Origin: a virus
IMG/VR virus record: IMGVR_UViG_3300028027_000054
Coordinates: 15,807 to 79,806 of that record
DNA length: 64,000 bases
Strand: one strand, 5' to 3'
Part shown: positions 5,901 to 60,630 of the stretch, one piece after another
How positions within the stretch are numbered: the first letter of the stretch is position 1
How the letters are laid out: each line of letters opens with the position of its first letter
Made by a program: the position numbers and the translations under genes
The notes under the pieces: model-generated
Told to the model about the DNA's origin: nothing
The model's input: only the letters and a program-made list of their open reading frames with translations
Database searches by the model: none

Positions 5901-8461
5901 TAAAAGACTTGTTTGATCTATTCAAAAAAGGAATAGATCCTAACAGAGGTGGTGGTCGTTTGTATACTGCCCCACTTGCTGTGTCTAAAGAAAATAAAGC
6001 AGCTGCTTCTGCAACAGGAACATCTGGAGGAACAGCTTATGCAGACGGTTCATTTATGTTGGTTGCCAAAAAAGGAATTCTTGGCATAAGCAATGTAAAT
6101 GATATTGGTGGTATCCTTGTTAACAGCGGCTTAACCGATATCAACCCAGAAATTCTTACAGAACTAAGAAAAGCTTTCCCTGGTTTAGTTATAGAAAGTT
6201 ACAAAGGTGCTAAAGAACTAGTACAGAAACTTAATAATAACGCTCCACAAACTTCTACTTCTGCACCGGCAGCTCCTGTAGTTACAGATGTTGAAGAACC
6301 CGCTGAACAAACTACCAAAGAAGAACAACAGGCTCCTGCATCTACGTTAGAGAAAGAACTGAATGACCTGGCTAACCAACTCCGTAATGATGTTGGTATT
6401 CGGACTGAGCTTAGGTTCATGAAAGCTGGATCTATTGGATATGATAAAGACGGTAACAAGTACCAGTTAGTATCTAAGAAAGATAAGTACGGACGCAGCC
6501 TTGAGTATCGTAAGAACGATGGACAGGAACAAAGCTTTAATCCAAAGACAGCTTCTCAGCAATCTGGCAGCCTGGATTATTATCCTGAAGGGTTTGTTAA
6601 CTTATACAGTAAGAACCCCAAAGCTACCTTTGACAAGTACGAGAAAGATAAAGCTGCCATAGAAGAAAAGTACAGGCAGATAGAGGCTGCTAAAGCCCAG
6701 GCAGAGCAGAGTCAGTCTCAAGCAGACCAGACTGATCCGGAAGAAGAGGATACATCTAAAGATGTCAAGGACTTTGTACAGGACATTAACAAGAACCGTA
6801 CCCAGTCTAACCAGAACAATGCTTTTGCCAATGCGGAATACCAGGAAGGTTTCAGGCAGGTGGCTCCTTCTAACTCACTGGCCAACACTACAGATCTGGT
6901 AAACGTAGTAGAGTTTGCAGCTAACCAGATCCGCTATGAAAGAGGAGATGTAAACAAGAACTATGTCTTTGATGTAGCTACCAGCACTTTTATGCCCGGT
7001 CAAAAGGTTACATATAAAGTCATGGTGGATGGTTTTGAACCCGTGGTGAACCGTCTCACTGGTGAGATGTATGATAAGAGTGCTCTATACAATGAGAACT
7101 GGAATGCTGTACAGAGCATGTTTGACTTTATTCCTATCGGGGTGTTTGCTAACATCCGTGGAAAAGAAGTCATGATCGGTACCATACATGAACCACAGTG
7201 GATTGAGTATAAGATCGGTAACAAGTATCCGCACATTGCTGTTCCTCAGGACCAGATTGACCAGGCAGTGCCTGATGTAGTAAAAGAACAGGTCCAAAAA
7301 AATAGAGAACTTCGTAAGTTTATCTTGGAGAACTACAACCAAAATCATAACTTTGTTATAGAGGGAGTTGTAGAAGATAAATCCATGGGTATACTAAGAA
7401 CTACAGAATCTGTTGATCCTATCAGCAAGCGGGTAAATCCGAAGATTGCAGAAGGCGGTACAGACAACCGTCATGGTATGTTTGGTATCGTCAAGGACGG
7501 TATGATCCAGTCAGACCGTAATGTAGAAATAGACAACATCATCCCTACAGAATCTTTCTCTCCTCAAAATATTGCTAACTATCAGGGTGTAGCAGTGCTT
7601 ATGTTGCCGACACCACTGGGCAAATGGTTCCCTTCCTTTATCCAACTGCCCAATGTTTCTACAGAGCAGTCTGAGTTTATCATTGAAGCATGGAAAGCTT
7701 TTACAAAACAGACCAATAATCCGGAAATAGTAAAAGCAGTGTATGATGCCATGGGTCTTACCCAGTCTGCCGACAGTTTTGCTGTTGGTGTACTGAGAGA
7801 TTACATCCACCACTACATCACAATAGTAGATGAGAAAGGAATATCCCGTACAGGAACAGGTAGTGAGCTTTCTCCAGGCAGTGCCAGGATAAACATTACA
7901 AACAAGGGAGGCCTGGAACTGCAGGTAAAAGGTTTAGACCGCAGTTGGTATACCACCGCTGAGCCGATCATGAAAGCAGAAAACCTGCCGGTAGACTACC
8001 TGCAGAAGATGAGCAACCTGAAAACCACTATTAGGTTTGAAAATGCTAAGAATGACAGCTTAAAAGGGATCAACTCTACAGACAAAGCCACCATACTTTC
8101 TATTAAGAACGGTAAGCTGGTCAAAGAAAACATAACGTACAACCAGTACATTATGGACCGTGCAGGAACTTTTGTAGACAACGGTATCCCAAGTAAGAAT
8201 GCCTTTGGTGACTGGGTGTATTTTGCCAACCCTGTGGTGAAGATGAAAATGACCAATGCTTCAGATCCTAATGAAGGACAGTCTGAATCTAAAAAAGAAG
8301 TAACACCTACTCCTACAGTAGACCAGGTTAACACACCTCGTGAAGATAAAGGTGCGGCTCTCCTGGCAGCTCTTAAATCCAAGAGGCTTCAGGAAGAGCA
8401 GATGGAAGAACAGAAGAAAAACTGTACTAGCCTGAGAAGCAAGCTTGATAACATAATGTAA
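2933..8461 (+). CDS. Large virion-ejected protein, 1842 aa, with N-terminal hydrophobic Gly/Ala-rich segments and inserted domains
   Basis: Membrane-like segments (e.g. LGSGVGFIAGMA, IGLGGILGGGM), a coiled coil, and P/Q/A-rich linkers flanking inserts. Lies just upstream of the vRNAP. Confidence 0.7.
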   Translation: MAEDFPQQMLNTGIPAGLLDGKGVPVSPWATTPASQVNDPNVDPRHVLMGQVTRAIPSSLSGPIRSSAREAEKYIGQDFGFLPSSVRDNEDFYAQYQSGMEKIGKGLLKLPLYTVTKLGSGVGFIAGMANPVNWFAEDGYISAVADNSISGFFDSWEQDIKNQWLPTFQEAEDQDKGFFARAATDVDFWTEDFVDGLAFMASAWVPGMALSKVGAGAKAIAGLAKFGSRGLGAVGESVEAVAATTNYFKNAAKYAKTLDKFNAWALATSSEAMFEAKGVKENVLKSLEGLDMPESEKKKIAGDNARNAFLMNAALLGATNVFELSLVSKMLNKTSGVASGITGGAKLGEDVAVKQATTQVGKFLESGFGRFAKDATAGVFREGFIEENGQLAIQRFNEQYGAAGKVADMLDFNTYAELGGNYLKQTYGALAGDDTEAATSIGLGGILGGGMTAIGNARQAPKDKLTTEEAVDYYNKSQESWLKFGNIYQTEQVVTKDASGNDVVTEKIKLDQNNQPMMDQQKLAGIASSVRSNAAAIDQTDNDTNMTRRNLVRDNAFADFVLAHVNANMEDTLLEKLDAIANSSPEELAKLGFVADKTLPEQIARYKSLASTIIKQNKIINADIIFDGSKEDAARKSRLTQLAAQQAVYKGLAAEEQVKYNEIRNQAVSSENSSLSDGLVEQLNGIKLRITSQEQFIKELKAQPNNLTKSQIKVAQDLLDNLKEQLASLEKTNELSVKNLKTFNNGLYQFEKDARNEVAYLIPMLKRMKYKGELDNHVETLGKEWGYYADFNDGKKNFLDMFIEQQIQGPVNSIIEAENNQPQLPPAALASPQGPATPPPGPSAGPQPGGAAQTQPAPTQQQTYDDLEKFLQAEYDMVKQALEAQGNPVPSYTDWKRTAGIEATKRFMAKKGQQQQGAQQQPAATPALTEMEKAEERLRQIWNTIGNGPGRNAIEDGWTESFGLLGDTLSVGGDNLQAHGMGKSGFAYAIKDLFDLFKKGIDPNRGGGRLYTAPLAVSKENKAAASATGTSGGTAYADGSFMLVAKKGILGISNVNDIGGILVNSGLTDINPEILTELRKAFPGLVIESYKGAKELVQKLNNNAPQTSTSAPAAPVVTDVEEPAEQTTKEEQQAPASTLEKELNDLANQLRNDVGIRTELRFMKAGSIGYDKDGNKYQLVSKKDKYGRSLEYRKNDGQEQSFNPKTASQQSGSLDYYPEGFVNLYSKNPKATFDKYEKDKAAIEEKYRQIEAAKAQAEQSQSQADQTDPEEEDTSKDVKDFVQDINKNRTQSNQNNAFANAEYQEGFRQVAPSNSLANTTDLVNVVEFAANQIRYERGDVNKNYVFDVATSTFMPGQKVTYKVMVDGFEPVVNRLTGEMYDKSALYNENWNAVQSMFDFIPIGVFANIRGKEVMIGTIHEPQWIEYKIGNKYPHIAVPQDQIDQAVPDVVKEQVQKNRELRKFILENYNQNHNFVIEGVVEDKSMGILRTTESVDPISKRVNPKIAEGGTDNRHGMFGIVKDGMIQSDRNVEIDNIIPTESFSPQNIANYQGVAVLMLPTPLGKWFPSFIQLPNVSTEQSEFIIEAWKAFTKQTNNPEIVKAVYDAMGLTQSADSFAVGVLRDYIHHYITIVDEKGISRTGTGSELSPGSARINITNKGGLELQVKGLDRSWYTTAEPIMKAENLPVDYLQKMSNLKTTIRFENAKNDSLKGINSTDKATILSIKNGKLVKENITYNQYIMDRAGTFVDNGIPSKNAFGDWVYFANPVVKMKMTNASDPNEGQSESKKEVTPTPTVDQVNTPREDKGAALLAALKSKRLQEEQMEEQKKNCTSLRSKLDNIM

Positions 8462-14400: not shown

Positions 14401-17400
14401 CTCAGGGAGAGATCGGGGCATCTATCAAGCATTCACTTATGGTGGCCCAGGATATTTACAAGGCCCTGTTTCCGATCAGTTCTGGTAGTCATATAGAAGC
14501 TGTTGTAGATAAATTGATGGCAAACCAGGGTAAGAGCAAAGAAGAGCTGGGAAAAGATAGTTACATCAGCCTTTATGACACTGTGTTCAATGGTATCAAG
14601 GCTTACCTGTACACTATGCCTGGTTTGGAATTATTCCAGGACTCACGTGGCACCAGGGATAAGCTTGTCAACGGAGACACGTCTTTGGGTAAACGTATCA
14701 TGGATCTGAGTAAAGATCCAGAATACAGACGTAACGGGTTCCTTAAAAATCTGGAAGTAAAGCAGGCTCCCAAGCAGAAAGCTTTCACTGTAAACTTCAA
14801 AGCTCCTTTTGGAACTGATCTGGACGAGAAAGCCATCATCAGCGGGTTCTATGAACTGGCCACTTCTGATAAAGAAGAGATCCGCCAGCTGGCCAAAGAC
14901 CTGGCTATTTATCCTTTTGTTACAGGTGATGCCGGTAACATGGGTAGGTTTATTCCTGTTGACTATTATCTGAGTGACGAGGACTTTAGCCAGGTGATTG
15001 CTGCACTAGACAGCGTATACAGCATGAACATGGATGACCCAGGAGCTATGCAGGCACTGATGCAACAGATCGTGCAGAACAATCCTGACCAGTTTGCCAA
15101 GGCATTTAAGTATTCTACATATGGAAGCGTTACCGGTACAAAAGACAATGTATTTAAACGTGTAGTCAAAAAGCTTGTAGGAAAAGAAGAACTGAAAGAT
15201 GTAACTACGTTTACCATTAAGATTGGTGACTTTGAAGCTGATCCTAAAGGAAAGAACATAGCAAACTCTCTGAAGGTTCCTCTGTCAAACGATGAGTCAA
15301 AATCTCTTAAGCAACAAGGTAAGACAGTAAATTTTAAATATCCTCCGTATATCCTGATCAACGATACGTTTACCAGTGAGTTTATAGAAGCGGGTAGCCG
15401 TAACGTGAACTATCTGTACAAGAGGGTTAGCTTTGCGGGAAATCCGGTTGGTACCTATGAGCGGATTAATATCCTGGGATACAACGGTATCAAAGAGTAT
15501 GACTTTAACAACCCAGATCTGGCATCATCCATAGAAGGTAATAATAACGTAGAGGATGACACAGCGTTTCAGGAAACCGTTCCGCCTGCAGCTCCTGTAC
15601 AGGAACAAGTTACTTCTACTGGTAGTAAAACTTATACAGGTAAGATAGAAAGCTTGCAACCTAACCAGGTGTTTGTGTTTGGGTCAAATCCTGAAGGTAG
15701 ACACGGTGCAGGTGCAGCAAAAACTGCAGCTGATAAGTTTGGTGCAGTTAATAATCTTGGTCGTGGTTTACAAGGACAGTCTTATGCACTGGTAACCAAG
15801 AACCTTAAACCTGGTTTTACAGAATCAAGCACTGGGATCACTTATGAGAAAGCCGGTGAAAGAAGTGTTAGTCCGGAACAAGTTAAGGCTAACATTCAGG
15901 AGCTTTATGAAACAGCTAAGCGTAATCCGGATAAAGAGTTTATTGTAGCTTATTCAGCTACAGGTAAAAATCTGAATGGATACAGTGCACAAGAAATGGC
16001 TGATATGTTCTCTTCTGCAGAGATACCATCTAACATGGTATTTGAAGAAGGGTTTAGTAAGTTGTTAAATAAGCAGGAGGCTCCTGTTACTCAAGGTGTA
16101 GAGATCTCTTCTAACTCAAAAGGTCTGGCAGCAGCTCTTACTAATCCTACAGAGCTGGCTAAGCAGAAAGGTAATTTGACTCAGTCTTATCCTGTTACGT
16201 TTGATGGGGTTACTTATAAAGACGCAGAAGAAGCTTACCAGAAGAACAAGGGTAAGTATAAACCTGAAGGTCTTGGTAAGGGATCTACATATGATCTGAT
16301 GGTACAGATCCTGGAAGCTAAGCTTAAGCAACATCCTCGTTTGACAGAAGAGATCACTAAAGCTGGAGGCATGAATTGGTTGTCTAAAGCTACTCATCAG
16401 CCAACTGGTAAGAATACGGTATGGGAAACTGGTGGGCAGAACCTGTTTATCAATGCTTTACAGGAAGCTTACTATGGTGTAACTGAAGATGCTGCAATCT
16501 TAGCAGAGCAAAACGAGGAGCAGGAAGTTATTAAAGCACCGCAAGAGGACCAGGAATCAGTCACCATGGTAACGTATGGTGGTAGAAACTTTATCCTGGA
16601 AGAAAATGCAGGTAGTTTTGATGTTTTCTATGCTAATGATAATGGAACTAAGGGTGTTCCTGTAGAAGACAGGGGGCTGTTTAAAAAAGTACAGCTCACA
16701 CACGCTATTTCACTTTACCCTGAAAGAGTGGTTTCTATAACAATCGGTTCTAAAGAGAACAGTTACTATGTTATTGATGATAGGATTTTCTCTCTACAAC
16801 CAAGCTCTTTTGGTGACCTGATCACATCTGATGATGTCACACGCCGTGTGATGCAGCAGATGAACACACCAATGCAGGAAAAGCAGGTTGAGCAGCAAGA
16901 ACCTAAGAAGTCTACTACAACGTTTACATATAAGAATATCACTGTACCTACAGAGTTTCAGCTGAGTGCAGAACAAAGCAAGGCTCTGGAAAACATCATT
17001 GACTTTGTAGAAGCAAGATCTGCAGGAGAAGGAACTTATGACGGCACCTATACATTAGAAGGCTATGCCGGTACTGGTAAGACATCCATCATTGGTGTTC
17101 TGGACCGGTATATCTCTCAGAAAGCCAAGGGTACTAAGTTTGTTTACATGGCACCTACCCATGCGGCTACTGTTGCCTTGGGTAATAACATTGTGAAGTA
17201 TGGTGCCAGGGAACTGCCTATGACTATACAGGCATCAGTAACAGAATCTAAGGATCCGAGAAGACCCGGACCTAAGTTTACCAAGAAGTTTACTGACAGG
17301 GCTACTGGTATGAGGAATGTCATCGTTTTGGATGAGGCTTCTATGTTGGCCAACAAAGACTTTGAGAAGCTTATTCTTGCTGCTAAAGCAGAAGGTTATA

Positions 17401-25923: not shown

Positions 25924-26144
25924 ACGAGGTAGTTTGGGTCAAAGATGAAGTCATACATTTCTTCTGAGGGTATCTCACAGAGTTGCATGGCTTTTACAAT
26001 AACTTTAAGAGGGGGCTGGGCCCTGTTCTCTTCATACGATCCAAGGGCGGACCGGGTAATACCTAGTTCATGAGCAAAGGTTTCCTGGCTCATGCCGAGC
26101 TCATTACGTAGCTCTTTGAAGTTCTGATTAATGTAGATTGTCAT
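25920..26144 (-). CDS. XRE-family HTH regulator
   Basis: LRNELGMSQETFAHELGITRSALGSYEENRAQP. Confidence 0.85.
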   Translation of the reverse strand: MTIYINQNFKELRNELGMSQETFAHELGITRSALGSYEENRAQPPLKVIVKAMQLCEIPSEEMYDFIFDPNYLV

Positions 26145-53324: not shown

Positions 53325-54006
53325 CTTCTTTTGTTGTTAGTTCTAAATAGATTTCTTTTACATCAGTGTCACAGGTGCCGATGCTTATCTCTTCCATCAT
53401 TACTACGAGCGTATCATCAACCAGTTTAAAGCTGCTACGCTCAAACCTGTCAGCCTGCCAGATACTTCTATATTCTGTAGTATCTTCCATCTGACTGTAA
53501 GCTTGGATGGCTTTTTCTACCTGTTCTTCAAGCTGCTTCTTGACTTCTTGAGCAACTTTAGTATGCTCATCAGTCAGAAAACCGTTGTTGACAATAAAGG
53601 CTACATCTATGTGAGGAGTTTCACCTTCTATGTTGTACTCTAAAGCATTAAACCACAGGCTTTCAGGCACAGTGATCTTGATGGGATACTCAAAGTCGTA
53701 GTTCTCATCTTCACTGTAGTAGTCTGTACCTACAAATGCTTTCTCTGTAGAGTTGTAAATGGCTTCCCCGCTGGCTGAGAACTCACCGGCCCAGGATCCA
53801 TAGTCCAGGTGATCATACATCAGGTCAGTAAGCTGACGGATCTCGTCGTTTTCTGCATTGTCTGACACCTGCTGACCATCTATGGTAAAATATGCCCAAC
53901 CGGAATCTCCGCCACCTTCCCATTTGATACCTAACTCTTTACCTTGTGCTACCTGCTCATCACACCATTTAATCAAGTCTGATGTTGCTATTACTTTCTG
54001 TGACAT
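53314..54006 (-). CDS. Acidic hypothetical protein (DUF6878-like)
   Basis: WEGGGDSG motif. Confidence 0.45.
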   Translation of the reverse strand: MSQKVIATSDLIKWCDEQVAQGKELGIKWEGGGDSGWAYFTIDGQQVSDNAENDEIRQLTDLMYDHLDYGSWAGEFSASGEAIYNSTEKAFVGTDYYSEDENYDFEYPIKITVPESLWFNALEYNIEGETPHIDVAFIVNNGFLTDEHTKVAQEVKKQLEEQVEKAIQAYSQMEDTTEYRSIWQADRFERSSFKLVDDTLVVMMEEISIGTCDTDVKEIYLELTTKEDEY

Positions 54007-54397
54007 CTTTTAAAGTTTTTTCTGTTACATAATCAAGTTTTTGGTCTTCTATTTCACGGACCATTTTTCTACCCTCACCGGGTTTAAACATCCAGCCTTC
54101 CGTAGTCATGCAGTCTAAATACTGCTTGATCGTAGGAATAAAGCCGATGTCTTCTTTTAAGTGCTGCTCACCAATAAACCTTACAGGAACATTCTTCCCG
54201 TCTGAGTTAGTGATGACCACACCAAAGATTTGCTCACACCAGAAGATGCCTTCTGCGTGGTGTCTCAGAGCACGATGTCTCATGTCTGGATAGTTAGCCT
54301 TGGTTTCATCAAACCAGCTATGGATTTTTATATAGTCTTGCCAAACTCCCCCGTACTTGCGTGCGGAAGAGATAGCGTGATGATATGGATGTGACAT
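53969..54397 (-). CDS. DUF6915-like His-rich protein
   Basis: HPYHHAISSARKYGG ... IH.WFDETK ... RHRALRHHAEG ... GEQH..ED. Confidence 0.7.
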   Translation of the reverse strand: MSHPYHHAISSARKYGGVWQDYIKIHSWFDETKANYPDMRHRALRHHAEGIFWCEQIFGVVITNSDGKNVPVRFIGEQHLKEDIGFIPTIKQYLDCMTTEGWMFKPGEGRKMVREIEDQKLDYVTEKTLKDVTESNSNIRLD

Positions 54398-55652: not shown

Positions 55653-56126
55653 TTAGAGTGTAGCCTGCACTGCTTCCAGTTCCTGGAGATCGTACAAACT
55701 GCGGGTGATAGCCTGCACCTCACGAATTTCTTCTGTGTTGGTGTGGGTGATCAGCTCATCTGTGGCATTGTTGTCACTTGTAAAGAATGACTGACGGTAG
55801 ATGGGTTGATCATCTACACGGCATATTATTCCTGTGTCACCGGCAATCTTCAGATCCCTTTCAGGATTGGTCGGATTGAATGGTGTAAAGGATTCTTTTA
55901 CAACGATCTTACCAGTTATTTGCTGGCCTGCTTTGAAGTCGGCTGCAACAAGATCAGTTACCAGGCCTTTGATAAAAGCTGACCGTTTGGTAAGCTTAAG
56001 CCAGCCTTTAGAATTGATCTGGTGTGAACTTTGCTCGACTCTGATAGAGCCATACTCAGGGTTGTTCTGAGAAACTACGATAACGTTTCCGTGTTCATCT
56101 GCTTTGACAGTTACTTTACTGGTCAT
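55653..56126 (-). CDS. Hypothetical beta-rich protein
   Basis: 157-aa ORF flanked by terminators. Confidence 0.6.
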   Translation of the reverse strand: MTSKVTVKADEHGNVIVVSQNNPEYGSIRVEQSSHQINSKGWLKLTKRSAFIKGLVTDLVAADFKAGQQITGKIVVKESFTPFNPTNPERDLKIAGDTGIICRVDDQPIYRQSFFTSDNNATDELITHTNTEEIREVQAITRSLYDLQELEAVQATL

Positions 56127-56156
56127 AATCAGTGATTTAAGTTGTGATAAAAAATA

Positions 56157-56187
56157 AAAAACCCCGGCTACGTTCGGGTAGCCAGGG
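56157..56187 (-). terminator. Intrinsic terminator
   Basis: CCCCGGCTAC ... GTAGCCAGGG hairpin with an A tract on its left. Confidence 0.65.
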
Positions 56188-56210
56188 CATAAGGTGTGAA
56201 GTCCGAGAGG

Positions 56211-56468
56211 TCATTCCTCTTCGGGACTGAAGTCTATATCAGGTTTTGTCAGCTTTTCTTCTTCAGGTACATCAATCAGGTCATCTACAGGTTCAGAAAC
56301 ATCTGGTGTTGAGCTTGACTTTTTACTAAGGACCGATCCAAACCAGGGATCTTCCATGATCTCTCCATAGTTGTAGGCTATGAGGTATTCCAGCTCTTCA
56401 TCACTCATCTCTAAATACTGCTCAGTACTGATCTCTATGACCTTACCATTGGGTAATTGGTACAACAT
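56211..56468 (-). CDS. Small acidic protein
   Basis: MLYQLPNGKVIEIS...; acidic tail. Confidence 0.6.
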   Translation of the reverse strand: MLYQLPNGKVIEISTEQYLEMSDEELEYLIAYNYGEIMEDPWFGSVLSKKSSSTPDVSEPVDDLIDVPEEEKLTKPDIDFSPEEE

Positions 56469-56553
56469 AGGGTAGATCTTATTCTATAAAAATAAGCTCT
56501 ACAAGTAGTTATACAAAATATCTAATGTAGAAGTCTGGATAATAGAGCTATAA

Positions 56554-56724
56554 CTATTTCTGGGAGGCATGTTTACGGGTCAATTCATGCATCTTTTTCT
56601 TCCAAAAAGCATTGGTTTTATTGATAGCCTCCTGGCGTTTGTCCAGTTCAACTTTCAATAGTTCAATCTCTTTTTCCAACTGCTGCACTTTTTGTGAAGG
56701 GAGTAAGTTCTTTAACCAGTTCAT
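56554..56724 (-). CDS. Small coiled-coil protein
   Basis: ORF starting MNWLKNLL. Confidence 0.45.
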   Translation of the reverse strand: MNWLKNLLPSQKVQQLEKEIELLKVELDKRQEAINKTNAFWKKKMHELTRKHASQK

Positions 56725-56788
56725 AGTGTTTGGGGAATAAAAAAAGGGACCCAAATGGATCCCTCAGTGTGAGAAAATAGATATTAGC

Positions 56789-57151
56789 TTAGAAGTTGAT
56801 CTCTATACTGTTTTTAGTAATGTTCACGTTCTTAGCTTCCGCTGAAACCTTTACAGGTACGCCGTTGACAACAAAATTCATCCCCGATTGTGCTGATACT
56901 GCCGTTGACCGTTCTTCCACCTGGGTTTTAGGTGTCGTTACAGTTTTACTTTCTATTTCTACTGAACCCGTGGGACGTTTGCCCCTTACATCAGGGAATT
57001 TAACTCCCTCTTGTTTAAACCGGTTCTTGTAGTTATGTACTGAAGAGATAGCAATGTTAAAATGCTTGGCTATGTCTTCAGGGGCAACACCTTTTTGGAC
57101 CATGGATTTCATTTGTTGAATATCCTCTAATGACAGACGTTTATTAGCCAT
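56789..57151 (-). CDS. HTH DNA-binding protein
   Basis: GVAPEDIAKHFNIAISSVHNY helix-turn-helix; adjacent to the integrase. Confidence 0.7.
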   Translation of the reverse strand: MANKRLSLEDIQQMKSMVQKGVAPEDIAKHFNIAISSVHNYKNRFKQEGVKFPDVRGKRPTGSVEIESKTVTTPKTQVEERSTAVSAQSGMNFVVNGVPVKVSAEAKNVNITKNSIEINF

Positions 57152-57214
57152 GTTCTATAGTTTAATGTACAATATTAATACATTTTCTATAGGATGACAC
57201 AGATTTAATTGGTT

Positions 57215-58327
57215 TTAACCCAGCTTGTCTAAGATCTTCTTCTCCAATCTTTTGTTGGAGATCCGACCGTATATAGCTGCGGTTTTCATGGTGACGCCCA
57301 GGAGTTCTGCCACTTCTTCCAGGTCAAACCCGTTGTCCATCAGCAACATAGCAAAAGAGTGCCTGGCCGTGTGGACCTTGATCTTACGGTCTACACCAGC
57401 CATTTTGGATATGTCCTTGACATAGTCTCTCATGTTCTGTTCTGATATATTAAACGGGTTATCTCTACAATATGTGAGGATCTCTGAGAGGCGGGAGTGG
57501 ATGGGCATGGAAACGACCCTTTTGTTCTTTTTGGTCTTTAACAGGATCCGTGCACTCGACACCATGGACTCATAGGAGAATTTCTTAAAGTCACTGATCC
57601 GGTAACCGGCATAACAGGACAGTAGAAAGTAATAGCCGCTCATCTTCATCATGGGTCTCTTAATGGCGTCACAGACCGTTTTGAACGAGGCAATCTCATC
57701 TTCAGTGAGGTATTCAGGTATACCTTGTTCATATACAGGAACAACGTACGCCTTGTACCGGTCCTCTTTGATGAGACCACGGTTCTTGGCCTGTTTTAAG
57801 AACCCCTTGATGTTCTTCATCTTCTTGTGGACGGTGTTATGATGCATCTTTTTACTTCTCAAGTGCTGCTCGTACCAGTTTAACCAGGATACGGAGATCT
57901 TGCTGAAGTACAGATACTTATCATACTCTTCCAGTTCTTTACGGATGTCTTCATAGACTTCTATGGTAGCGTCAGCTTTTTTACCACGCATCTGCTGCTC
58001 ATAGTCTACAATGAAATCTGTAAAAGTTTGCTTGGACAGAGCTTCACCACGCACAGCTTTCTGGAGCATTTCCAGGCTGACCTGGGGTACATCCATTAGA
58101 TCCAGGAGGTTCTGTTCAATATCCACCATCTGCTTGTTGAGCATAGCCGTGATCTTGGCCCTATGGGGATGATTGATGACCTCCCGACCCTGAAGCTGAT
58201 CTGGTCGCAGCTTGAAGTCTGTAGGAGCGTAAGCATGCATCCGGTTAAATACTACACGGATGGACAGTTTGTGGAGATTGTCTTTGTCGGGTTTAGCCTG
58301 GAGGTAAGGCTTGATTGTGTATCCCAT
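57215..58327 (-). CDS. int: Tyrosine integrase (Bacteroidota Arm-DNA-bind/SAM-like type)
   Basis: N-terminal arm-binding-like region; catalytic GYRISD, KTKK, HTARHSFA, LLG(V), IYG. Confidence 0.92.
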   Translation of the reverse strand: MGYTIKPYLQAKPDKDNLHKLSIRVVFNRMHAYAPTDFKLRPDQLQGREVINHPHRAKITAMLNKQMVDIEQNLLDLMDVPQVSLEMLQKAVRGEALSKQTFTDFIVDYEQQMRGKKADATIEVYEDIRKELEEYDKYLYFSKISVSWLNWYEQHLRSKKMHHNTVHKKMKNIKGFLKQAKNRGLIKEDRYKAYVVPVYEQGIPEYLTEDEIASFKTVCDAIKRPMMKMSGYYFLLSCYAGYRISDFKKFSYESMVSSARILLKTKKNKRVVSMPIHSRLSEILTYCRDNPFNISEQNMRDYVKDISKMAGVDRKIKVHTARHSFAMLLMDNGFDLEEVAELLGVTMKTAAIYGRISNKRLEKKILDKLG

Positions 58328-58343
58328 ACCACTAAGCTAAAAA

Positions 58344-58556
58344 TTTACAACAGGTTTTACAACATGTTTACAACAAAGGGGCTAGAAAATGCCATAATAT
58401 GCCACTTTAGACCCCTGATAACAGGCTAAAAATCAAAAGGCCCCTGGTAATCAGGAGCCTTCTGCGGACCGGACGGGACTCGAATGTTATTCTGAAACCC
58501 TTGTCTGGTTTATGTTCTAGCGTGTTAATCAAACAATTTACAACGGGTTTACAACA
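58344..58556. mobile_element. attP site: tRNA 3'-end core with arm-type repeats
   Basis: Core 58463-58484 (rc TTCGAGTCCCGTCCGGTCCGCA). TTTACAAC(A) repeats at 58344, 58356, 58367, 58537 and 58548. Lies between int and xis. Confidence 0.85.
58435..58461 (-). terminator. Terminator just downstream of the attP tRNA fragment
   Basis: rc AAGGCTCCTG-attac-CAGGGGCCTTTT. Confidence 0.7.
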
Positions 58557-58559
58557 TTA

Positions 58560-58808
58560 TCAGAACCTGGGACTGTCTCCCATGATTTTTTCTTTGCTAT
58601 AAAACCTCGTTCCACCTACACCGACACGGTACATATCCGGTGTGATTCTGCCTTTACTTACATACCCAATGAGGGTTACTTTCTTTATACCAAGCAGTTC
58701 ACAAACTTGTTGTTCTGTGAGCCACTCATCCTGTTGGACCAACGCTTGTTTTACCAGGCGTTTTAATTCCAACCAGTCTTTACGGGGTACAGTGACTTGA
58801 TCGGACAT
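58560..58808 (-). CDS. Excisionase-like (MerR/AlpA-type HTH) protein
   Basis: WLTEQQVCELLGIKKVTLIGYVSKGRI ... G.RFY; adjacent to attP. Confidence 0.75.
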   Translation of the reverse strand: MSDQVTVPRKDWLELKRLVKQALVQQDEWLTEQQVCELLGIKKVTLIGYVSKGRITPDMYRVGVGGTRFYSKEKIMGDSPRF

Positions 58809-58814
58809 AGCAAG

Positions 58815-59372
58815 TTAAACTTTTTTAGTAAACTTTTTGTACAGATCTGTGAAACGTCCGGTAGCTGCATGCATAGGTGAGTCTTTATAACCCGGCATGT
58901 CTTTTAGTTCAATCTGGTCTACCAAATGCCCGTCTTCATTGACCTGTTTACCTTTCCTGATAATCTCTTTGATCAGCGTTTCTTTGTGATCTTCTGAATC
59001 AATACTGACGATCAGGATCTCAGCTTTGATCGGGATGCTTTTCCAGTCATCCATGATCTTGTCAGGATCTACGGTTTTAGCATCAGCTATACGCATCCAG
59101 GCTTCAGAAGCCCAGCCGATAGCACGGATGTCAATCCGTTCACGGACTTTTTCTGCAATCTCAGGAACAACGTTGTCTATAAACTGGTCTTTGCTTGCCT
59201 CATCTTTCATATACTTAGAGTCTATAGGAACAAGACAGATAGCACTTTTGCCATCTGGTTTGTGTGTTCCCAAAACCGTAAATGAAGGACTAAGGCCACC
59301 AGATTCTACGATCATCTTGGTTATAAGTTCCAAGTAATCTTCTCTCAGGACTTTGAATTCTTCTTCTGTCAT
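58815..59372 (-). CDS. Hypothetical protein
   Basis: 185-aa ORF with a SEAW motif. Confidence 0.6.
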   Translation of the reverse strand: MTEEEFKVLREDYLELITKMIVESGGLSPSFTVLGTHKPDGKSAICLVPIDSKYMKDEASKDQFIDNVVPEIAEKVRERIDIRAIGWASEAWMRIADAKTVDPDKIMDDWKSIPIKAEILIVSIDSEDHKETLIKEIIRKGKQVNEDGHLVDQIELKDMPGYKDSPMHAATGRFTDLYKKFTKKV

Positions 59373-59382
59373 GATTTAAGTA

Positions 59383-59967
59383 TTAATCCCACCAATGTTT
59401 GAGTTTATAATGCATCAGCTTCCAGAAAATGCGTTCACATTTTTCCTGGTTATAACTTGACACTCTGTAGGCAAGTCTTTCTGTTTCTGATGCTTTGAGC
59501 TTGTATTTTTTACGAAGTTTCTTGGCCGTACGTTTATACTTAGCCAGATAGTCTTCCAGATGTTCTTCAATAATGGTATCCTGCATGGCCAGGTAATCAC
59601 CGGTGACATCCACCGGTATAAAGTCATATGACTTCTTGATGTAGTCAAACATCTCAACTTCATAGTAACCATGCTTGATGCGTTCCAATAGGTTAAGGGC
59701 AAGAGTGATTTCTTTATTGACTTCCTCCACGCCATAGAACCTGTTAGCTACAACTAAGGTTTCCCTGGTGAACTCAAGTTTTTTCTGAAGGATATCAGTG
59801 ATAAAAGCATTATCCCAGTGCCGGTCTCTATAGATGGTCGGCATCCATCTGATGATGTTTGTCACGCCACGCACAAATTCCTTAAGCCAACTGGGTACAT
59901 AACGTAACCAGTTGTTTCTTTCCCAAGCAGTGTCTTTAGGTGTCTGAAGTTGCACGTAACGTTTCAT
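59383..59967 (-). CDS. Hypothetical phage protein
   Basis: W.PTIYRDRHWD ... WWD. Start reassigned to MKRYVQ. Confidence 0.6.
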   Translation of the reverse strand: MKRYVQLQTPKDTAWERNNWLRYVPSWLKEFVRGVTNIIRWMPTIYRDRHWDNAFITDILQKKLEFTRETLVVANRFYGVEEVNKEITLALNLLERIKHGYYEVEMFDYIKKSYDFIPVDVTGDYLAMQDTIIEEHLEDYLAKYKRTAKKLRKKYKLKASETERLAYRVSSYNQEKCERIFWKLMHYKLKHWWD

Positions 59968-60112
59968 TGTTTTCTTTTTCTGGATGATGGAGAGGTTCGC
60001 AAGTTTCACCTTGGCAACAGGGTTGAATGTTGTTTCTACAGACATGACACTGCACGTGACCATGCACGTTTACGCCAGGTGTTTGTTGATGACAAATAGG
60101 ACAAGTGATCAT
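59936..60112 (-). CDS. 58-aa Cys/His-rich zinc-binding protein (not in ORF track)
   Basis: MITCPICHQQTPGVNVHGHVQCHVCRNNIQPCCQGETC... Confidence 0.65.
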   Translation of the reverse strand: MITCPICHQQTPGVNVHGHVQCHVCRNNIQPCCQGETCEPLHHPEKENNETLRATSDT

Positions 60113-60186
60113 AGTGAATTAAGTTTTTAAAGATTAAAAAAACCAGGGTGTGGAAACACCCCGGAAAATTTAAAAAATGGGACCAG

Positions 60187-60630
60187 TGGAGGTAGCCGGA
60201 TTTGAACCGGCGTCCAATAAAGAAGACAATAGATAAATTCATTACATGCTTAGTACTGACGATCAAGAGGGAGATCCCCCGTCATCTGCACCGTAAGGGC
60301 TGACCTTGTTATGGTCCGATCCACCACCTGGTTTTGACATAACCAGGAAAACCGCCAGGCGTACAGTTTACCGCCCAGAAACTATCAGACATTGTGACCA
60401 TAGGTAGTCTGACTAGCAGTGTCCGTTTCTGTTCCCAGGATGGACTTCCCGGTAGGTTAGGCTGCGATTGCAACTTCACCGAAGATAGAAGCCAAGATAG
60501 CTTCACCTTCTGCTACACGGTCAGACTGTGTCGTGCCGTTTATTGTTTTGCAGTTTGTTTAAGGACCACTTCTACCAAAGGTCCGCATGTTTACTTACCT
60601 CTCGCTCTATTGTCAATACCTGTTACCCCC
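60187..60630 (-). ncRNA. ssrA: tmRNA
   Basis: 5' GGGGGTAACAGGTATTGAC and 3' GGACGCCGGTTCAAATCCGGCTACCTCCA form an acceptor stem with G3:U70, discriminator A and a T-arm. ACATGC/GCATGT helix, a pk1-like GGACC/GGTCC stem, and a tag ORF at 60537-60457 ending AIAA*. Confidence 0.92.

Follow-up and report, generated by a model that had tools for sequence, protein, structure and literature searches.

In phages P4, P22 and HP1 and in mycobacteriophage L5, integration depends on lambda-type heterobivalent integrase systems in which the bacterial attachment site (attB) is the 3′ end of a tRNA gene. We analysed a locus of similar organization in a stretch of 64,000 nt of viral DNA (hereafter, the window) that corresponds to positions 15,807 to 79,806 of IMG/VR virus record IMGVR_UViG_3300028027_000054 and forms the last 64 kb of a 79.8-kb virus contig with a CheckV completeness figure of 61%. 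As in those four phages, the locus encodes a three-domain integrase, arm repeats flank a core that equals a tRNA 3′ end so that the tRNA would be rebuilt, and a small winged-helix protein is present as a candidate directionality factor. Unlike in them, the excisionase-like gene (xis) and the integrase gene (int) lie on opposite sides of the phage attachment site (attP) and would thus come to lie at opposite prophage ends, a phage terminator stands directly behind the core, and the His of the LGH motif of the integrase is replaced by V (V/D/N/I family-wide). The locus is, in our view, probably a functional module for site-specific integration, carried by a large environmental crAss-like phage and present here in the free attP form. 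As a tyrosine-integrase module that targets a tRNA it is classical, and the phage group in which it occurs is what is unusual; its parts are ordinary, and lysogeny is what they imply rather than what was observed.

The locus reads on the minus strand as part of a long co-directional array, in the order 82-aa open reading frame (ORF), two repeats, tRNA string, hairpin, three repeats, 370-aa ORF and 120-aa ORF. Its features are the following:

58560-58808, minus strand: excisionase-like gene, candidate recombination directionality factor; 82 aa, N-terminal helix plus MerR-like winged helix
58537-58555, minus strand: P-arm, two direct repeats 11 bp apart; TTTACAAC on the plus strand
58460-58488, minus strand: attP core, 29 nt, unchanged in the window phage and in phages L003 and L004
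58463-58484, minus strand: 22-nt copy of a tRNA-Asp(GTC) 3′ end, comprising T-loop, T-stem, acceptor stem and discriminator G, then CA
58424-58464, minus strand: intrinsic terminator, 13-bp stem at 58434-58464 plus T run
58344-58374, minus strand: P′-arm, three direct repeats 11-12 bp apart
57215-58327, minus strand: heterobivalent-type tyrosine integrase; 370 aa, arm-binding N-domain, SAM-like core-binding domain and catalytic domain
56789-57151, minus strand: helix-turn-helix (HTH) protein, candidate lysogeny regulator; 120 aa, sub-threshold matches to HTH_7 and HTH_23

The repeat TTTACAAC occurs nine times in the window, against 3.1 copies expected in 64 kb. Five of the copies fall within 212 bp, at 58344, 58356, 58367, 58537 and 58548, all in one orientation; the Poisson probability of at least five in such a span is ~1e-12. 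The terminator hairpin folds with a free energy (dG) of -21.9 kcal/mol and a z-score of -4.2. A preliminary description of this DNA had placed integrase and excisionase around a 22-nt tRNA copy, a terminator and five repeats, three on one side and two on the other, and this arrangement was found exactly as described; the reverse complement of 58463-58484 is the string that it gave as the core. No whole tRNA was called in the window by ARAGORN.

Searches with the first 20 nt of the core returned exact matches in at least 120 prokaryotic genome stretches (one genome per species). In nearly all of those listed, the string forms the 3′ terminus of a gene that has a GTC anticodon loop, and ARAGORN called the one example checked as tRNA-Asp. 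Among the matches listed, those from Bacteroidota were mostly from Chitinophagaceae/Chitinophagales, with others from Pedobacter, Sphingobacterium, Chryseolinea, Ohtaekwangia and Saprospiraceae. The Bacteroidota tRNA-Asp genes end in G-C-A with no encoded CCA, like the phage copy, and the matches from Gammaproteobacteria continue with an encoded CCA. These exact matches identify the predicted target of the core as tRNA-Asp(GTC), an assignment that had been given as probable. The earlier suggestion that the core could serve as a handle for host prediction holds as far as the tRNA match goes; the handle is a coarse one, shared by several Bacteroidota orders and many Gammaproteobacteria, and the core alone would give no host resolution below the Bacteroidota orders Chitinophagales, Sphingobacteriales and Cytophagales.

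Pfam searches matched the 370-aa protein to Phage_int_SAM_5 (65.4 bits, cut-off 22.3) and to Phage_integrase, PF00589 (45.6 bits, cut-off 27.1); the arm-binding domain PF17293 scored 15.2 bits, which is sub-threshold here, and is recorded in several of the homologues, 151 of which were found at E<1e-10. R243, K267, H319, R322 and Y353 are invariant among 51 aligned relatives (down to 38% identity). The second catalytic His position had been read as LLGV, correctly: when the protein was aligned by profile to XerC-like and XerA recombinases of solved structure, V345 fell on the LGH histidine, and the position is V, D, N or I in all 51 relatives, never H or W. The ratio of nonsynonymous to synonymous substitution rates (dN/dS) of the integrase gene was 0.05 in comparison with L003, an IMG/VR phage, with synonymous sites near saturation, and in the same comparison int was the best-conserved gene of its neighbourhood. 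Because position 345 is V/D/N/I in every aligned relative and dN/dS is 0.05, LLGV appears to be a family-wide active-site variant under strong selection and not a sign of decay or of a dead gene. Together with the five invariant residues, this answers the concern, raised in the preliminary description, that the integrase might be inactive. By its PF00589 domain, R, K, H-x-x-R and Tyr nucleophile, the protein is a predicted tyrosine recombinase, and arm repeats on both sides that co-vary with the N-domain place it among the heterobivalent, lambda-type enzymes. Whole-integrase identity is 89% to L003 and 64% to L004, a second IMG/VR phage; by domain, identity to L004 is ~47% in the arm-binding, 55% in the core-binding and 81% in the catalytic domain. 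The closest relatives from isolated phages are the integrases of Bacteroides phages BS-TP2, BI-TP1 and LoVEphage and of the Flavobacterium FPSV phages, which have in common with it a SAM_5-type core-binding domain typical of Bacteroidota integrases; in contrast, identity to them is only 25-27%, and those are 40-70-kb non-crAss phages.

Comparison with relatives showed that the 29-nt core is identical in the window phage, L003 and L004, whereas identity over the remainder of the region between xis and int is 75% and 52%; the chance of an invariant run of 29 nt is ~1e-6. The layout of two plus three repeats is kept in number and position in L003, L004 and L131, the repeat sequence is changed in L004 and L131, and the hairpin is kept with different stem sequences in all three. 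In L004, the repeats differ where the arm domain of the integrase is most diverged (~47%, versus 81% for the catalytic domain). L131, another phage, whose integrase is 40% identical, shows the same layout and the same tRNA-Asp core with a repeat sequence and a hairpin of its own. Other members of the integrase family have a tRNA-Arg-type core instead, and at L133 a whole tRNA-Arg(TCT) lies directly upstream of int, which is the integrated form. In a Bacteroidia genome, G643, a 31%-identical relative of the integrase follows a complete tRNA-Asp, a terminator and repeats, in an element that is not crAss-like; a second contig of that genome carries a 17-nt copy of the tRNA end and then another terminator. 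The order core, terminator, repeats and int of the window is the order at the L133 and G643 left attachment sites (attL), in support of the earlier proposal that integration restores the tRNA and supplies its terminator. With a core that equals a tRNA 3′ end, in an orientation that would rebuild the tRNA, the site has the predicted makeup of an attP for a tRNA gene, and both its anatomy and the comparison support the earlier view of int, attP and xis as one module.

Partial tRNA-Asp copies were also seen at other loci. In G643 (L157, 2800-3010), the intact tRNA-Asp at the border of the integrated element has two truncated 5′ parts of tRNA-Asp, arranged in tandem, just upstream of it. In a Chitinophagaceae metagenome-assembled genome (L092, 4001-5665; JADKKA010000019.1), a genuine tRNA-Asp has behind it nine additional copies of its 3′ part plus terminator. 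Eight of the nine recur with a period of 115-135 nt, and in front of every copy a short hairpin replaces the 3′ side of the anticodon stem. Single units similar to these copies were found at L015 and L063. The L092 units may be integration scars or a tRNA-derived repeat.

The 82-aa product of the excisionase-like gene scored 27.4 bits with Pfam HTH_17, 0.4 above the cut-off of 27.0, and 18.3 bits with TIGR01764 'excise', under the cut-off of 28.8. Its AlphaFold2 (AF2) model (predicted local distance difference test score, pLDDT, 76) consists of an N-terminal helix followed by a winged helix. The model was closest to BldC and MerR-type DNA-binding domains (TMt 0.71-0.77, weak E-values) and, lower in the list, also matched the Xis of mycobacteriophage Pukovnik (TMt 0.66, weak E-value). 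Residues 29-78 superpose on the BldC/MerR winged helices with a root-mean-square deviation of 1.3-1.9 Å over ~50 residues, and on Pukovnik Xis as well (PDB 6ama, 6amk, 4j2n); unlike these proteins, the 82-aa protein has an extra N-terminal helix, and sequence identity to them is ~20%, with Foldseek E-values of 0.015 or weaker. In four other phages, homologues are encoded no more than a few kb from related integrases. The L131 homologue, found directly downstream of int, is 63% identical, while the integrases are only 40% identical. The dN/dS of the gene was 0.08-0.16. We propose with moderate confidence that the 82-aa protein is a candidate directionality factor.

A colinear sister contig of 126.6 kb (L150, CheckV 97%) made it possible to place the locus in its genome. 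Both ends of the sister genome meet across a stretch that is continuous in the window contig, and it contains a single copy of the core; the sister genome is therefore circular or circularly permuted, and complete, in the attP state. With phage DNA on both sides, the window contig is likewise read as the excised, free attP form, as the preliminary description had concluded from the phage genes that flank the site. A metagenome contig of 3.1 kb, assembled independently and 99.8% identical, has the same attP arrangement. We rejected a misassembly on the strength of three independent assemblies and this metagenome contig, and host DNA to the right of xis on the grounds that the region is colinear with the circular sister genome. 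A full-length transfer-messenger RNA (tmRNA) gene at 60184-60630 of the window (minus strand; Rfam RF00023, 70.2 bits), 1.4 kb beyond xis, is phage-borne and not host DNA; ARAGORN missed it in the window and called it in the sister genome, with a 26-residue tag.

DNA similarity searches with positions 56000-60000 of the window found no match among GenBank phages. At the protein level, all listed matches of the sister-genome TerL (25 of 136 records) and the organism tally were crAss-like phages at ~25% identity, including the gut cr-series, crAss001-type phages, FpV4, and Cellulophaga and Azobacteroides phages. The sister-genome major capsid protein (MCP; L150, 14902-16521) matches csAssE-Sib and cr6_1, a giant virion protein of 3645 aa matches FpV4 and crAss001-type proteins, and a 'ring protein' homologue likewise matches crAss-like phages, with only 23-30% identity for the four proteins. 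These matches are in agreement with the earlier assignment, in that the phage can be classed as crAss-like in the broad sense, with a predicted genome size of ~126-130 kb and a place in an environmental lineage distant from the gut crAss-like phages (TerL ~25%). For the MCP, the top match was to a 125-kb cyanophage, Leptolyngbya phage Lbo-JY46 (29% identity across 99% of the length), and all named crAss-like phages ranked lower. Elsewhere in the window, a 142-aa protein (53969-54397, minus strand) matches DUF6915 with 154 bits and is kept across the lineage at 55-79% identity.

The lineage was also followed through a helicase encoded 5 kb downstream, which has more than 100 IMG/VR relatives at 53-75% identity in genomes of 100-128 kb. 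In none of 80 such genomes fetched were the window integrase, xis or core present. Eight close relatives have the flanking genes (homologues of 58815-59372 and 56211-56468) side by side, with no integrase in the slot between them, and the 120-aa HTH gene is absent as well. Other genomes carry other integrases in the same slot, namely a 364-aa protein on the opposite strand, 289-300-aa proteins with a canonical LMGH motif, and a 374-aa protein. The type-A integrase family profile detected none of these other types, which were identified by ORF position and Pfam. Homologues of the 120-aa HTH gene were found at 15 IMG/VR loci, and at all 15 an integrase ORF, of one of four types, lies directly upstream. 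A fifth integrase type stands beside the same HTH gene on a phage contig in the Bacteroidia genome assembly G568. No fewer than five kinds of integrase are thus found in the slot, in every case next to the one conserved HTH gene. The model of the HTH protein comprises a three-helix HTH, a disordered linker and a four-strand beta domain, and a fold search with it returned generic HTH matches only; we infer from the linkage that it is a candidate lysogeny regulator.

Beside the 364-aa integrase of IMGVR_UViG_3300042546_000214 (L166, ~6237-6283), there is a ~47-nt 3′ half of a tRNA-Val(TAC)-like gene, from the anticodon stem to the acceptor end, flanked by short repeats of its own. It is probably a second type of attP in the lineage. 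That one slot has repeatedly recruited integrases is evidence that integration matters to these phages. We tentatively suggest, at somewhat less than even confidence, that the position is a dedicated 'lysogeny slot' of a widespread environmental crAss-like lineage, in which the HTH regulator is kept and the integrase/attP cassette has been swapped at least five times, each cassette having its own tRNA target (tRNA-Asp here, the tRNA-Val-like half in a sister). On this proposal the unit would have been gained and lost many times, so that close relatives would alternate between a virulent and a temperate life style and would also exchange one chromosomal target for another.

The mechanism that we propose for the window phage follows the lambda scheme. 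The integrase would act as a lambda-type heterobivalent tyrosine recombinase. Its N-domain would bind the five arm repeats, of which two lie towards xis and three towards int, and its core-binding and catalytic domains would act on the core of 22-29 nt, whose sequence equals a Bacteroidota tRNA-Asp(GTC) 3′ end. Recombination with attB in tRNA-Asp would put the phage copy of the tRNA end and the phage terminator behind the 5′ part of the host tRNA; because these join the host 5′ part, the tRNA would stay intact, with int beside it at attL. The excisionase-like gene and the P-arm would lie at the far prophage end, the right attachment site (attR); binding of the P-arm by the small winged-helix protein would most likely turn the reaction towards excision. 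The HTH gene just downstream of int would be the best candidate for a lysogeny regulator. In this scheme the phage is probably able to insert into the host chromosome, an ability that is rare among crAss-like phages; we infer recombination activity, the roles of the Xis-like protein and of the regulator, actual lysogeny and the host.

The anatomy of the site, the identity of the tRNA, the purifying selection, the co-variation of arm repeats and integrase, and the free form can be read from the sequences compared. Several observations weigh against a working module. In the integrase, the LGH position, which corresponds to the final His of the RHRH set, is occupied by neither His nor Trp; family support for the Xis assignment lies at or below thresholds (HTH_17, TIGR01764); and most relatives in the lineage lack the cassette. 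No attL or attR junction or prophage of the lineage was found in the metagenome scan, which gave attP forms only, or in the genome samples, a small sampling. Among 401 Chitinophagales genomes, neither the integrase (E<=1e-40) nor TerL was present, and among 401 Bacteroidia genomes the sole integrase match at E<=1e-30 was the 31%-identical G643 relative at tRNA-Asp. Contigs with an integrase at least 54% identical do not exceed 129.6 kb, about one phage genome. In G568 the lineage phage is present as two short contigs, and the integrase contig begins inside the arm repeats, so that the att junction is lost. Finally, there was no match to Peptidase_S24, and no CI-like or S24 repressor is conserved in the lineage.

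TerL matched two of the 401 Bacteroidia assemblies, G568 and G554 (28% identity). In G568 no contig overlapped the end of the integrase contig, and its own tRNA-Asp differs from the core at two positions. Integrases of 39-41% identity (P0062, P0089) lie on contigs of 241 and 172 kb. Narrowing the host by the sister tRNA-Val-like site gave one-mismatch matches only, in 3 of 81 Chitinophagales, 0 of 81 Sphingobacteriales and 1 of 61 Cytophagales genomes, and was not decisive. An 86-aa HTH_3 (XRE-type) ORF at 25959-26117 of the window (minus strand) was undetected in two sister genomes and could be a strain-specific regulator.

Lysogeny itself, claimed earlier in the form of a temperate lineage, was not borne out, the check for attL/attR junctions in assemblies having found none in the collections searched, and 'complete lysogeny module' was an overstatement, as the only regulator linked to the integrase is the candidate HTH protein. 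It could be argued that the module is real and recently acquired while the phage is effectively virulent or only pseudolysogenic. Integration would then be rare or abortive for want of a maintenance repressor, and the cassette would pass between Bacteroidota phages as a mobile passenger. The lack of the cassette in most lineage relatives, of a conserved repressor and of any lysogen found would fit with this, as would the presence of integrase relatives in unrelated phages. We nevertheless judge it unlikely: int and xis are under strong selection over a divergence that saturates synonymous sites, three diverged phages have retained the core and the arm layout, and a slot that repeatedly recruits integrases together with one HTH gene is hard to explain without a use for integration.

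Far less probable is a recombinase for extrachromosomal life, serving multimer resolution or copy control of a plasmid-like prophage, with the tRNA-like string as a resolution site and not attP. Carjivirus communis has been reported to live as a phage-plasmid (PMC10983915), and every copy observed here is unintegrated; however, exact copying of a host tRNA 3′ end, followed by a terminator, would serve no purpose in a resolution site, integrases are characteristically marked by arm repeats, an arm-binding domain and an Xis-like partner, and relatives are integrated beside whole tRNA genes. That the 22-nt string is a decayed phage tRNA-Asp gene unrelated to the integrase is the least credible explanation, since, although lineage phages do carry tRNA genes (tRNA-Ile in L004, 7288-7363; a whole tRNA-Asp(GTC) in L261, 3900-3972, contig 82 of G568), the L261 tRNA-Asp is encoded in a different part of the genome and mismatches the core at 3 of 22 positions, and a decaying remnant would neither stay invariant while its flanks fall to 52% nor be framed by co-varying repeats beside int.

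Crassvirales are generally described as virulent or non-integrating, with lysogeny at 'very low rates' (PMC10159846, PMC10983915). Integrases have nonetheless been noted in crAss-like subsets (PMC9980608), annotations of integrase, excisionase and repressor are enriched in mouse-gut Intestiviridae and Zeta (PMC13503771), a repressor and anti-repressors without an integrase are known from the epsilon group (PMC11054128), and temperate crAss-like members have already been suggested (PMC11923282). The novelty implied in the preliminary description is accordingly lower, crAss-like integrases being already in the literature (PMC9980608, PMC13503771). The window phage has lysogeny-type genes in common with these phages; those reports, in contrast, are at the level of annotation, and the window phage belongs to a distant environmental lineage. 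In a literature search that was not exhaustive, we found no attP, arm sites or tRNA target defined for a crAss-like phage. What is new here is that the cassette occupies a hot slot in a lineage that is large, environmental and mostly without integrases. Because the parts themselves are classical, the value of the finding lies in the phage group and in the pattern of cassette exchange, and not in a new mechanism.

The usual view of crAss-like phages is that they do not integrate, and their persistence is a long-standing question. The locus provides, in a crAss-like genome, a specified attP with predicted core, arms and terminator, an integrase and a candidate directionality factor. If integration were confirmed, the module would supply a new Bacteroidota integrase/att pair, one without the LGH histidine, for genetic tools in Chitinophagales-like bacteria; its exact tRNA core would be a handle for assigning hosts; and true lysogeny would be established for a part of the group of crAss-like phages.

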